From: a virus
Taxonomy: Duplodnaviria > Heunggongvirae > Uroviricota > Caudoviricetes
Reading direction: 5' to 3' (one strand)
Length of the DNA: 25,610 nucleotides
IMG/VR virus record: IMGVR_UViG_2718217884_000005
Span: 1-25,610 of that record
Part shown: piece after piece, positions 11,471 through 14,747 of the stretch
Numbering within the stretch: the first letter of the stretch is position 1
Layout: each line of letters begins with the position of its first letter
Made by a program: the position numbers and the translations under genes
The notes under the pieces: model-generated
Database searches by the model: none
What the model saw: only the letters and a program-made list of their open reading frames with translations
What the model was told of the DNA's origin: nothing

Positions 11471-11660
11471 GCTTCACCTCCGCAGAGGTCAAACGTTGGA
11501 TGCAAAAAAACGCAGGTGCATTTCTGCATCTGTGAATGGAGAAGAGAGTTTGGATTGTATGTGCGCATAAACGTCCCCGTTTAGCGCAGAAGTCACCGGA
11601 GTTGTTCAAGCTCCGATGACTTTATTATTACGAATTGATTTTACAAAATCAAAAGGTATG

Positions 11661-12113
11661 TTAGTGACGCGGGTCTGTTATTATGCGAGAAGGGTTTCCG
11701 TATAAAACAAGGACCTTACTTCCTTGAGTAAATAACGGATCTTTGCCTTGAACAATGGTCATTAAATTCCCATTCTCAGTTTCGACAACATATTCCATGC
11801 CTGTTTGTTTTGTTGCTGAAGATTCGATTGCTGCCCCGGCAATACCACCAATGACTGCACCACCAACGGCACCAACGATATTAGAACGAACTCCCCCACC
11901 AAGCGCAGAACCAGCGGTTGCCCCCACGGCAGCCCCAGCAGTCCCGCCTAACGCGGAAGTCCCACTGATATCAACCCCCCTGGCACTAATAACTGTACCA
12001 GCGATAGTTCGATTAACCATGCCCACAGAGCCAACAGAATAACTATTTGGCGATATATTTTGTGCGCATCCAACCAACACTAAGAGTGGAGCAATTACGA
12101 ATAATCGCTTCAT
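11661..12113 (-). CDS. SlyB/Pcp-like glycine-zipper outer-membrane lipoprotein
   Basis: 150 aa; signal peptide with lipobox LVGC; long Gly/Ala zipper (GGTAGAAVGATAGSALGGG...GAVGGAVIGGIAGAA) as in SlyB; AT-rich. Confidence 0.7.
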   Translation of the reverse strand: MKRLFVIAPLLVLVGCAQNISPNSYSVGSVGMVNRTIAGTVISARGVDISGTSALGGTAGAAVGATAGSALGGGVRSNIVGAVGGAVIGGIAGAAIESSATKQTGMEYVVETENGNLMTIVQGKDPLFTQGSKVLVLYGNPSRIITDPRH

Positions 12114-12670
12114 TTAGCTACCCTAACAGGAAACATTGGACGAGAAAGATCAACACTTTCTAATGCTTGCAAGAACTGCGTTATGTTGTTTTGCACCGCG
12201 CGATTAACAGATTCGCGTGCTCGAACAATACCGTAGAATGCGTAACTGGCTGGAACAGTACCGGTAGACTCAATATCCTGCGTATATATAATATCACCAT
12301 TCGCACGGTTGATTATTTCATACCTTGCAATTGCTTTAGTTGTCATTGAAACACCAAAAGCAGGAACGTCAAGAGCCAACACTTTAACATTTAAGCTAAC
12401 CGTATTTGGTGAACTATCACGAAAAATAGTCATTCGGTCGAGTGCTTCCTGCAAAGATTCACGCCAAATTGGAGTTATAGCCTCCATACCAGCAGTGATA
12501 TCCCCTTTCTGCTCATCTGGACGAGCAAGTGATACCGTTAATGACTTAATTTCAGCATCTATTTTTTTCTGGCTAACTCCCACGTTAGGTGTTGAAAAAT
12601 TCAATGGTGGCACACTAGCGCAACCTGTTAAAGAACCAATAATCATGGCTAATAATATTATCTTCTTCAT
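12110..12670 (-). CDS. lipoprotein of unknown function, co-operonic with the SlyB-like gene
   Basis: 186 aa; signal peptide and lipobox LTGC; stop overlaps the start of the downstream lipoprotein gene; AT-rich. Confidence 0.65.
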   Translation of the reverse strand: MKKIILLAMIIGSLTGCASVPPLNFSTPNVGVSQKKIDAEIKSLTVSLARPDEQKGDITAGMEAITPIWRESLQEALDRMTIFRDSSPNTVSLNVKVLALDVPAFGVSMTTKAIARYEIINRANGDIIYTQDIESTGTVPASYAFYGIVRARESVNRAVQNNITQFLQALESVDLSRPMFPVRVAK

Positions 12671-12926
12671 AAATTTACCTTATTGTTATAACCAAAGGAA
12701 TTATAAAGTAAAAAAGTTCACTATCACTAGCCATTAACGACATCAATTTCAGAGAAACATGGTACTCATTTCCACAAATTTGACACAAGTCATTTTCACC
12801 TACATATTCCATCATACTTGATGCATATGTTATTGAAGCCTCTATCCTATCCGTTCATAATAGCAATAGTTACCCGGGTGATAGTACCTCTATGATTACT
12901 CGTCTTTCTGATTGATTGGATTAAAT

Positions 12927-13118
12927 ATGCGCGCCAAAATTTATCAACTTTCGTTATGGATATTTATTTCGTTTCTAGCGATCTATGCCTTTATTATCTA
13001 TAAAGGTTCTTATATTGGAGTAGCATTGCATCAAATTGCTTGGATCATCATTATTGCCTCTGGCTTGATTGCTAGGCTAACTAAACCAAAGCAAAAACCA
13101 ATTTCGTCCAATAATTAG
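12927..13118 (+). CDS. small hypothetical membrane protein (two hydrophobic segments)
   Basis: 64-68 aa ORF in the AT-rich island; no homology recognised. Confidence 0.3.
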   Translation: MRAKIYQLSLWIFISFLAIYAFIIYKGSYIGVALHQIAWIIIIASGLIARLTKPKQKPISSNN

Positions 13119-13524
13119 ACATGTATTAAAAAAATGATATTTTTATGTACATAGTCTATTGAAAATTGCCGCGATAAAATGCCAACACCCGCTTCATCGC
13201 GGCACTCTGGCGACACTCCTTAAAAATCAGGTTCGGCTCACCTTTCCTGCCCGTTCTCCCCGGGTAGCAAACCGATAATACACCGTTCGCCAGTCCTTAC
13301 TATCAATGACCAAGATTCCTGCCCATATCATTTTAGCCACAGCCTAATTTATGCTGGTTATTGTTACGTGTGAATTCAGTTAGCTGCATAAATTGTCACG
13401 GAAGTGATACATCGATATTATCGAGAAATTCACTCGAATTTATACGATTGAAACTGCACTTATATCTGTTTTAAATACTCCGAACACTCTTTACAACAAC
13501 TGTGTGAAAATGGAGATAATTAAA

Positions 13525-14253
13525 ATGAAAAAGGGTTTGGCTATTTCATTCATTGCCGCCGTGTGTGCATTTGCTGCAAATGCGAGTGCTGAGGAAAGTA
13601 AAAACGGGTTTTATCTAACCGGTAAAGCCGGTGCCTCTGTGGCGTCGTTATCAGACCAGCGTTTTCAGTATGATGAAGGCGATTGGTCAACTGGATTTAA
13701 GGGCAGCAACAACCATGACACGGCGTTTAGTGGTGGTATCGCAGCGGGTTATGACTTTTACCCACAGTTCAGTATTCCTGTTCGTACGGAGCTTGAATTT
13801 TATGCCCGCGGAAAGGCTGATACAGAATACAATCTTTTTAAGGACGACTGGGTGCGAGCTGACATGAAGAATGAGGTGTCAGTCAACAGCCTGATGTTGA
13901 ACGCGTACTATGACTTCCGGAACGACAGCGCATTCACCCCTTGGGTGTCCGCAGGGATTGGTTATGCAAGAATTCATCAGAAATCAACGGGTGTCATCAC
14001 CTTCGATAATGGATACGGATACAGTGACCGCGCATCTGATTCCCGTTCAGATTCTTCTGATAACTTCGCATGGAGCCTTGGTGCTGGCGTCCGCTATGAC
14101 GTAACTCCAGATGTCAGTCTGGACATCAGTTATCGCTACCTGGATGCAGGTGATGCCAATGTGACTTATACCGATGATTGGGGCGATAAATATAAATCAG
14201 ATGTTGATGTAAAAAGTCATGACATTATGCTTGGTGTAACCTATAACTTCTGA
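13525..14253 (+). CDS. outer-membrane beta-barrel protein (Ail/Lom/OmpX-like or OMP_b-brl family)
   Basis: signal peptide MKKGLAISFIAAVCAFAANASA; alternating hydrophobic beta-strand pattern; C-terminal aromatic (…GVTYNF); AT-rich moron position. Confidence 0.7.
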   Translation: MKKGLAISFIAAVCAFAANASAEESKNGFYLTGKAGASVASLSDQRFQYDEGDWSTGFKGSNNHDTAFSGGIAAGYDFYPQFSIPVRTELEFYARGKADTEYNLFKDDWVRADMKNEVSVNSLMLNAYYDFRNDSAFTPWVSAGIGYARIHQKSTGVITFDNGYGYSDRASDSRSDSSDNFAWSLGAGVRYDVTPDVSLDISYRYLDAGDANVTYTDDWGDKYKSDVDVKSHDIMLGVTYNF

Positions 14254-14300
14254 ACAAACCTTTTCTAAATTATAATTACACGCTTACTGTGATTAACTAA

Positions 14301-14336
14301 AGCCCCCTGCAATATATTGCTATGGGGGGCTCTTTC
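14301..14336 (+). terminator. rho-independent terminator after the OMP gene
   Basis: stem agccccc / gggggct around a 17-nt loop, followed by ctttcg. Confidence 0.55.
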
Positions 14337-14654
14337 GCTCATCGTGCAGGATGATTTTTGCCTAATTCCGTTATCACCACAATAATATTCATCGACATTT
14401 TCTTAATGGACACCTGAAAATATTTTATCGGGTAATATTCCGAGATTTTATTGTTTTTATTCTTTTCCGTTATCTCTGATAATATTGTAAGCATCCGGTG
14501 AACTCGCCTTGCGTGGACTAGCCAGTCGTTGTAGCACTGACGCCGCTGCGTTGAGTTCTTTTTTTCGCCATCAGCTCTCCTGCTTCTGTAGATAAAGAAG
14601 AGACAGAAGAATGGCGTTGATCACAACGACCAGTAATGCGAATTCATCGGCCCC

Positions 14655-14747
14655 TCACACTGTTACAGCTGATAGTGCAACAACCTCCAACGCACAGAAG
14701 CTCTTATGCGTCCCCAGGTAATCAATAATTGCCTCTTTGCCCGTCAT
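14655..14747 (-). pseudogene. ren: ren remnant (first ~30 codons)
   Basis: minus-strand ORF MTGKEAIIDYLGTHKSFCALEVVALSAVTV* matches the recalled N-terminus of lambda Ren (96 aa) then terminates; ATGA overlap with the P stop. Confidence 0.5.

Follow-up and report, generated by a model that had tools for sequence, protein, structure and literature searches.

A probable mosaic of two moron-like modules, a SlyB-type lipoprotein pair and an Hra-family gene within ren, between P and ybcN of a defective lambdoid prophage of Escherichia coli S1

Morons, as defined by Hendrix and Juhala, occupy positions, between two genes or inside one, where related phages have the genes side by side or whole; they differ in base composition from the phage genes around them, carry their own promoter and terminator and are expressed from the repressed prophage. 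Examples such as bor and lom of lambda, cor of phi80 and N15, and llp of T5 are self-contained genes of foreign composition that encode outer-membrane proteins on a phage backbone. Here we describe cargo of this kind in a lambdoid prophage of E. coli strain S1, at positions 11471-14747 between the replication gene P and ybcN. The analysed DNA (hereafter the window) is the whole stretch of 25,610 nucleotides (nt) of IMG/VR record IMGVR_UViG_2718217884_000005, which is identical to positions 3170964-3196573 of NZ_CP010226.1 (strain S1, a mouse isolate). Unlike the morons named above, the S1 cargo sits in the early-right operon (within ren and in the slot between ren and ninB), not in the late region, and its lipoprotein part is a conserved two-gene system that is also found outside phages. 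We consider it probable that the block is a mosaic of two independent morons in a defective prophage: module A (about 11655-13155), a lipoprotein pair that likely reinforces or reorganises the outer membrane, and module B (13369-14658), which carries the gene of a putative adhesin of the Hra/Hek/Tia type.

Relatives of both modules have been described. Under outer-membrane stress, SlyB assembles into rings that enclose outer-membrane proteins and patches of lipid, and its paralogue YfgH behaves alike (PDB 7OJF/7OJG; 10.64898/2025.12.22.696046); LptDE co-purifies with host SlyB as well as with host YajG (PMC12065857). The Hra family (Hra1, Hra2, Hek, Tia and Hes) consists of outer-membrane proteins for haemagglutination, autoaggregation, adhesion and invasion, whose named members are 65-90% identical to one another and several of which are encoded in pathogenicity islands (PMC5539235).

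The cargo between P and ybcN extends over ~3.27 kb and has a GC content of 42.0%, compared with about 50% in the flanking phage genes, which bears out the preliminary description of an AT-rich block. Its GC content at third codon positions, 0.30-0.45 against 0.50-0.62 in the core, is likewise foreign, so the envelope cargo in the early-right (P to Q) segment is accessory in composition as had been claimed. GC content is uneven within the block (spacer 32%, lipoprotein genes 40-47%, outer-membrane protein (OMP) gene 46.5%), and both modules depart from the phage core of about 50% in the manner of morons (module A 39.8%, insert 43.0%). Four envelope genes in two orientations had been proposed; three are sound, in two orientations (11661-12113 and 12110-12670 on the minus strand, 13525-14253 on the plus strand), and all three encode predicted outer-membrane proteins, while the fourth, a small open reading frame (ORF) of 63 or 68 amino acids (aa), found no support. 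The features on which the argument rests are as follows.

11661-12113, minus strand: predicted SlyB-homologous lipoprotein of 150 aa, with lipobox LVGC, Ala at +2, a glycine-zipper hairpin and a C-terminal beta domain (phrog_13877)
12110-12670, minus strand: predicted outer-membrane lipoprotein of 186 aa, with lipobox LTGC and Ala at +2, predicted alpha/beta fold like LptE/PelC/PqiC/DUF330, distantly YajG-like
12671-13155, no strand assigned: AT-rich spacer of the lipoprotein module, with a promoter-like site (minus) and an unsupported ORF (plus)
13156-13368, minus strand: 3' part of ren, residues about 29-97, decayed through a single internal stop and a single frameshift (intact Ren compared with translations in three frames; RefSeq pseudogene)
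13369-14658, no strand assigned: 1290-bp insertion in ren at about codon 30 (BLAST against the uninterrupted ren of N1420 and PhiR30_1)
13525-14253, plus strand: predicted outer-membrane beta-barrel of the Hra/Hek/Tia family, 242 aa, signal peptide MKKGLAISFIAAVCAFAANASA (Pfam OMP_b-brl 1.7e-23, Opacity 1.5e-8)
14655-14747, minus strand: ren 5' fragment, 30 codons (MTGKEAIIDYLGTHKSFCALEVVALSAVTV) at 14658-14747, with its stop at 14655-14657 inside the insert (comparison with the intact 97-aa Ren of N1420)
14744-15445, minus strand: replication gene P, the right backbone flank (Pfam Phage_lambda_P E=6e-62; RefSeq 'replication protein P')
11467-11654, minus strand: left backbone border, consisting of a conserved leader and a ylcH-like ORF of 33 aa (11467-11568), with homology to K-12 DLP12 from 11654
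11015-11470, minus strand: ybcN, the gene at the NinB position and the first of a nin region of the phage-82/DLP12 type (NCBIfam PRK09741 4.6e-84; Pfam NinB weak)

ren is interrupted, not deleted, and both of its parts persist. The preliminary description had credited the prophage with about 30 surviving codons; the first 30 are indeed there, as a RefSeq pseudogene 'missing C-terminus', but the remaining two thirds are also present, decayed, on the other side of the insert. The prophage of strain N1420 and the isolated phage PhiR30_1 served as references with an uninterrupted ren, and positions 11000-13368 and 14659-15500 are colinear with them while 13369-14658 is extra. The flanks of the insert overlap by 9 nt on the intact ren sequence (BLAST), and therefore each flank has a copy of a 9-bp target; the result is an imperfect direct repeat outside the insert at 13360-13368 and 14659-14667, each copy of which agrees at 7 of 9 bases with the single intact copy ACTGTTGCG. 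In its sequence this repeat resembles a target-site duplication. A 10-nt direct repeat, TGTGAATTCA / TGCGAATTCA, is also found at 13369-13378, the exact left end of the insert, and at 14637-14646, 22 bp inside the right end, and is statistically at chance level.

K-12 DLP12 has the same backbone and the same slot, and there an insertion sequence (IS), IS3C, divides renD after 93 nt, no more than about 3 bp away from the 9-bp target of the S1 insert. The K-12 interrupter is an IS and the slot there holds other cargo (emrE-ybcK-ybcL-ybcM), whereas S1 has a non-IS fragment with a putative adhesin gene. We read the two interruptions as independent events, because fragment 2 of the K-12 ren is only 88% identical to the copy in the window and shows no visible decay. 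The S1 event is a rare, strain-level curiosity; together with the IS3 of K-12, it hints that codons 29-31 of ren may be a recurrent insertion target.

The two modules have very different distributions among 5426 complete E. coli genomes. The 1290-bp insert is found in 6 of them, and the five carriers other than S1 (both AW1.7 assemblies, 210205630, WP8-S17-ESBL-05 and STEC1588) have the same decayed ren::OMP allele followed by emrE-ybcK cargo, with no lipoprotein genes there. The lipoprotein module is present at an identity of at least 99% in 280 genomes, S1 included (279 others), and the order ren, spacer, 186-aa gene, 150-aa gene, ylcH, ybcN is seen in N1420 and CUVET25-1155 (the two examples from other E. 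coli strains in which the order was read), in PhiR30_1 and in the majority of some 20 IMG/VR contigs. An intact 97-aa ren accompanies the module in N1420, PhiR30_1 and these IMG/VR contigs. Both layers together, with the whole block covered, are found in S1 alone. When mismatches were mapped along the block, the similarity to the ren::OMP lineage stopped at 13183 and the near-identity to the lipoprotein lineage stopped at 13221, which places the crossover within 13183-13222, in the 3' end of ren. Since the join maps inside ren, the S1 arrangement arose by homologous recombination in ren between two prophage lineages.

These data bear directly on the alternative put forward in the preliminary description, namely a single envelope island of ~3.2 kb that was gained as a block, deleted most of ren together with ninB-ninD and ended at its own terminator. 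The AT-rich stretch from P to ybcN is contiguous and each of its sound genes encodes an envelope protein, as such an island would have it, but the parts are separate in hundreds of genomes and joined in one only, and both halves of ren are present. The nin region is an intact one of the ordinary phage-82/DLP12 type with ybcN at the NinB position, so that the supposed replacement of ninB-ninD does not hold. The GC-rich hairpin that had been taken for the terminator of the block (14301-14331) is real, but it lies inside the insert, which reaches to 14658, and is trailed by only three T. We thus regard the single island as refuted; what looks like one is a rare insertion with a putative adhesin gene beside a common lipoprotein module, two independently circulating modules joined by a crossover within ren. 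Alignment to related prophages, by which the island was to be delimited, did set the borders given above, but of two layers and not of one. A related intact phage with the same block and assigned functions had been named as evidence against an island; PhiR30_1 comes part of the way, carrying the lipoprotein part between an intact ren and ybcN, with functions there that are automatic labels only.

The position between ren and ylcH/ybcN is, by comparison of genomes, a variable cargo slot. In lambda, ren and ninB are 73 bp apart and the slot is empty; in K-12 it holds emrE-ylcJ-ybcK-ybcL-ybcM, in PhiR26_1 PD-lambda-1 plus Rha, and in AW1.7 emrE-ybcK-P22AR. The positions of the S1 modules are accordingly those of morons, with ren intact in N1420 and PhiR30_1, its neighbour close by in lambda, and other cargo in K-12 and PhiR26_1. 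On the left side, homology to K-12 DLP12 restarts at 11654, 7 nt past the stop of the SlyB-like gene, and 11571-11655 is matched by thousands of genomes. By comparison with the K-12 annotation, ylcH-ybcN-ninE-ybcO-rusA-ylcG-Q is the usual nin region of the phage-82/DLP12 type, and one source names a member of the ylcH cluster 'Uncharacterized 3.7 kDa protein in rusA 5' region' of phage 82. The locus is thus an example of cargo build-up in the P-ren-nin segment of lambdoid prophages, where the slot holds efflux, defence or envelope genes depending on the strain. Our search of the literature on PhiR phages, on the ren-ninB slot as a hotspot and on a phage SlyB-like exclusion system found nothing relevant.

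The OMP encoded in the insert has the sequence properties of the Hra/Hek/Tia proteins (a beta-barrel of roughly 25 kDa, a signal peptide and similarity to named members). It shares 59% identity, over 100% of its length, with the cluster called 'invasion outer membrane protein Tia', and 72-77% with further large clusters from E. coli; the exact sequence, which is on 464 contigs, is named 'Heat resistant agglutinin 1' by one source. With at most 77% identity to the nearest other cluster, it is by sequence a distinct allele of the Hra family, which together with Salmonella PagN offers the closest known comparison, and it would act as an adhesin or agglutinin. Unlike the described members, it is encoded in S1 within a phage gene, ren. 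Its match to the Lom PHROG is weak (1.8e-6), and no close relative was found among 50,697 phage records. Strain MIN10 has a 76%-identical OMP gene in a tRNA-Phe island, followed by a phosphoethanolamine transferase gene, and this donor context agrees with the pathogenicity islands of other family members (PMC5539235). Beyond the OMP gene, the insert contains two scraps.

14371-14484, plus strand: 5' end of a phosphoethanolamine transferase gene, a remnant (76% nucleotide match to such genes)
14520-14658, plus strand: further scrap, with 77-81% similarity to hypothetical genes (3' end and the sequence following it) from IS-rich islands on plasmids and chromosomes

The first of these covers the first ~25 codons of the transferase gene after the OMP gene and the hairpin, and matches the gene downstream of the MIN10 OMP at 90% over 41 nt, and also over codons 10-25, in the same orientation; ahead of the OMP gene, the insert sequence from 13411 shows homology to that preceding the MIN10 gene. 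Because of the transferase remnant, the island-like scrap and the MIN10-like upstream sequence, we take the insert to be a fragment of an island locus that kept part of its native upstream region. Module B would then be a 1290-bp piece of a genomic-island locus with the order hra-like OMP gene, phosphoethanolamine transferase gene, whose entry into ren near codon 30 left 9 bp duplicated; its gene, with part of the native upstream sequence and the hairpin past its stop, would be transcribed against the phage operon. ren would be dispensable and its decay would have followed the insertion, and recombination in its 3' end would later have linked the ren::OMP allele to the lipoprotein module. The prophage-borne Hra allele may matter for colonisation in its few carriers, including a Shiga-toxin-producing isolate and the heat-resistant food strain AW1.7.

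AW1.7 has an IS3 in its copy of the OMP insert, 34 bp in from the right end, and lacks P, O and the 5' fragment of ren; a truncated integrase gene and ybhC now adjoin the OMP gene there. In the S1 insert, a 51-aa ORF on the minus strand (14339-14494) was rejected as a gene since it overlaps the transferase remnant on the opposite strand.

The more useful lead is the lipoprotein pair, which is conserved and uncharacterised, includes a SlyB homologue and occurs in about 5% of complete E. coli genomes. The start codon ATG of the 150-aa gene overlaps the stop codon TGA of the 186-aa gene as ATGA, an arrangement that suggests translational coupling. Under the Lol sorting rule, lipoproteins without Asp at +2 go to the outer membrane, and both products should be sorted there because of their lipoboxes (LTGC-A and LVGC-A). 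The N-terminus of the 150-aa protein (MKRLFVIAPLLVLVGC-AQ) has Cys16 followed by Ala, not Asp, at +2, and Cys16 is invariant in 47 homologues. A profile of these homologues against the PDB matched SlyB 7OJF at E=3.3e-15 (28% identity, query 2-150 on chain 3-155), and the predicted structure of the 150-aa protein matched 7OJF in Foldseek at E=1e-7; in a single-sequence search, the Pfam glycine zipper scored 21.1 bits, below the gathering score of 24.2. On this evidence, we assign the 150-aa protein as a SlyB homologue. It resembles SlyB of E. coli and Salmonella (7OJF/7OJG) in its order of lipobox, N-terminal strand, glycine-zipper helical hairpin and C-terminal beta domain, and differs in being a phage- or island-borne paralogue, coupled to an upstream gene for an LptE/YajG-like lipoprotein, with no PhoP box above chance.

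The predicted structure of the 186-aa protein has an LptE/PelC-type fold. The newer RefSeq names it 'YajG family lipoprotein' (WP_000720581.1), and hhalign against E. coli YajG gave a probability of 80% (E=1.4e-5, 120 columns, partly signal peptide). Unlike proteins of the YajG/LptE/PelC/PqiC type, it has no PF03923 (Lipoprotein_16) match even at E<=10, where E. coli YajG scores 3.4e-52, and it forms a family of its own (979 clusters at E<=1e-3, no curated model). The label 'UDP-N-acetylglucosamine acyltransferase', which it bears in PhiR30_1 among others, was rejected in view of the predicted LptE/PelC-like fold and the lack of any Pfam or NCBIfam match to the protein. Reading the sequences of the long members of the family (P0424, P0426, P0475 and P0498) revealed no fusion to a SlyB-like domain.

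The pair is spread far beyond E. coli. Each lipoprotein sequence is on at least 1000 contigs, and homologues of the pair with 60-87% identity are found in Klebsiella, Edaphovirga, Pantoea, Bordetella, Pusillimonas, Xanthomonas, Stenotrophomonas, Lysobacter and Luteimonas. They stand side by side in every locus inspected (including those of Bordetella, Klebsiella and Luteimonas) and in 32 of 35 full-length matches on viral contigs. Three viral contigs (L051-L053) encode a relative of the 186-aa lipoprotein (54% identity) beside which no SlyB-like gene was detected, and the pairing is therefore not absolute. The chromosomal neighbours of the pair are accessory genes (toxin-antitoxin pairs, transposases, umuDC). 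On a 35-kb viral contig (L039) the pair, 73% identical, lies between the tape-measure and minor-tail genes, and on a 53-kb contig (L044), at 64% identity, it follows the large terminase gene; the cassette therefore lands in late operons too. Its GC content tracks that of the host, from 44% in enteric phages (6-10 points lower than the flanking DNA) to 57-65% in high-GC contigs, while the proteins remain 60-70% identical across this range. Such protein identity despite a GC range of 44-65% indicates that the pair is a self-contained mobile cassette under strong purifying selection.

Placed in the slot between ren and ylcH-ybcN, module A would be a self-contained coupled two-gene cassette whose SlyB homologue would insert its glycine-zipper hairpin and ring outer-membrane proteins and patches of lipid, with the LptE/PelC/YajG-like protein as its partner on the periplasmic face. 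Most likely, it would serve to strengthen or rearrange the lysogen's outer membrane. If this is true, SlyB-type nanodomains would be connected with the fitness of lysogens or with the conflict between phage and host. So strong a conservation from host to host would be expected of a universal target (lipopolysaccharide (LPS) or lipid, BAM, Lpt) more than of a variable phage receptor.

The lipoproteins Llp and Cor act on FhuA, and TraT is an exclusion lipoprotein. By analogy, the pair could serve superinfection exclusion or receptor masking, in which the SlyB-like protein would ring an outer-membrane receptor or DNA-entry site and its partner would cap or plug it from the periplasm. The pair is cargo of temperate phages from several host orders at varied genome positions, the slot elsewhere carries the defence gene PD-lambda-1, both products are predicted outer-membrane lipoproteins as are the known exclusion proteins (Llp, Cor, TraT), and purified SlyB was found wrapped around BamA (7OJF). 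However, neither lipoprotein matches a PADLOC model, an identity of 60-70% over Enterobacterales, Xanthomonadales and Burkholderiales is ill-suited to the binding of a variable receptor, the pair is also present in non-phage chromosomal contexts, and the likeness to TraT is only at the level of a very common lipoprotein fold; we consider exclusion, the chief rival reading of the pair, rather unlikely. A broader proposal, which we put forward tentatively and would not bet on, is that the bicistron is a previously unrecognised, widely mobile module of phages and islands that makes outer-membrane protein-lipid rings to the benefit of the phage, for example enclosing receptors, BAM or Lpt sites to exclude superinfecting phages, or hardening the envelope of the lysogen. 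Were it right, the nanodomain mechanism of SlyB would extend to a horizontally transferred two-component form in temperate phages across proteobacterial orders. The pair is directly testable, as at least one isolated phage (PhiR30_1) carries it.

Candidate expression signals were sought around both modules.

12727-12700, minus strand: promoter-like site for the lipoprotein pair, GTGATA-16-TATAAT, 30 nt before the start codon (consensus scan)
13393-13421, plus strand: sigma-70-like promoter candidate for the OMP gene, TTGTCA-17-TATTAT (consensus scan, 10/12 matches)
14301-14331, no strand assigned: GC-rich hairpin 48 nt past the OMP stop, a candidate two-way terminator with a weak T tract (RNA fold)
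11531-11508, minus strand: terminator-like hairpin with seven U, inside the ylcH-like ORF and just upstream of ybcN (scan and fold)

The hairpin at 14301-14331 folds with -18.2 kcal/mol (z -2.4) on the plus strand and -20.9 kcal/mol (z -4.3) on the minus strand, and is not listed by the terminator scan because its T run is short. The one at 11531-11508, where the slot ends downstream, may correspond to lambda tR2. Between ren and the pair, the minus strand shows no terminator-like site, which makes it plausible that transcription from pR reads through in lytic growth. The pair would then be expressed from its own AT-rich promoter region during repression and from pR read-through in the lytic cycle; in S1, the pR transcript must cross the insert and the two-way hairpin before it reaches the pair. 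Expression of slyB depends on PhoPQ. No Rfam match was obtained across 11000-15000 at E<=1.

Several observations weigh against the reading of the block as two functional morons. The insert has neither terminal inverted repeats (a scan of its borders for these or for IS ends gave only chance-level repeats) nor a transposase to account for the 9-bp duplication. Promoter-like sites are no commoner in the region than in shuffled sequence, and the PhoP-box pattern has 7 matches in the window against 7.05 expected, none of them convincingly placed. The SlyB-like monomer model is only moderate (predicted local distance difference test (pLDDT) 74, predicted TM score (pTM) 0.47), and the conservation of the pair, though it agrees with a universal target (LPS, BAM or Lpt, for instance), identifies no single one. 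The prophage, moreover, is defective, and its cargo could be tolerated rather than useful in S1.

Taken to its end, the last point would make the cargo inert debris of a decaying prophage, neither expressed nor useful. The S1 prophage is without head and tail genes, and therefore defective, and complete lysis genes are missing as well; ren is a pseudogene, the insert contains gene scraps, and the promoters are at consensus level only. Set against this, all three envelope reading frames are intact, the exact OMP and each lipoprotein recur on the many contigs counted above, an isolated phage also carries the pair, and purifying selection on the pair is evident across orders, so that we judge inert debris improbable. 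Surface remodelling or exclusion, as the preliminary description had it, would be a reasonable role for the cargo. The data themselves show how the block is built, where its borders lie, how its parts are distributed, to which families and folds the proteins belong and how recombination joined the two modules, whereas expression, localisation and all phenotypes are inferred.

The small hydrophobic ORF in the spacer was rejected as a gene. Its 63-aa form (12927-13118, plus strand) has 34% GC and no family match and is absent beside the pair in other taxa, and PGAP/RefSeq leaves it unannotated in S1 and N1420. Its sole annotation, in PhiR30_1 alone, fits the start at 12927, so the 68-aa start at 12912 was discarded too, the gene itself being doubtful. 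Neither this ORF nor the 186-aa protein had a match in Pfam, NCBIfam or PADLOC, and none of the four block proteins matched a PADLOC-DB defence model at E<=0.1.

The prophage is in minus-strand orientation and integrated at tRNA-Thr (thrW) beside proA, with the gene order int, exo/bet/gam, immunity genes, O (15442-16461), P, the studied block, the ylcH-like ORF, ybcN, ninE, ybcO, rusA, ylcG, Q (9380-10069) and holin; a truncated lysozyme gene, tail-fibre scraps, IS5 and unrelated island genes follow downstream of holin. The reading frame of O has 339 aa from the first ATG, while RefSeq gives a 309-aa product (15442-16371) in S1; related prophages are annotated with a full-length O, and the difference in S1 is one of start-codon choice only. 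An AT-rich (about 30-36% GC) acyltransferase-family gene at 6537-7601 (and 7633-8766) stands beside the tail-fibre and tail-fibre-assembly scraps and the truncated lysozyme gene, and may be another surface-modification moron in the prophage remnant. Past the remnant, positions 1-5300 of the window contain CP4-6-like genes (the ykfI/yafW toxin-antitoxin pair, an antirestriction gene and ykfF/ykfB), together with an AraC-family regulator in sequence of 33-43% GC and a frameshifted IS5.

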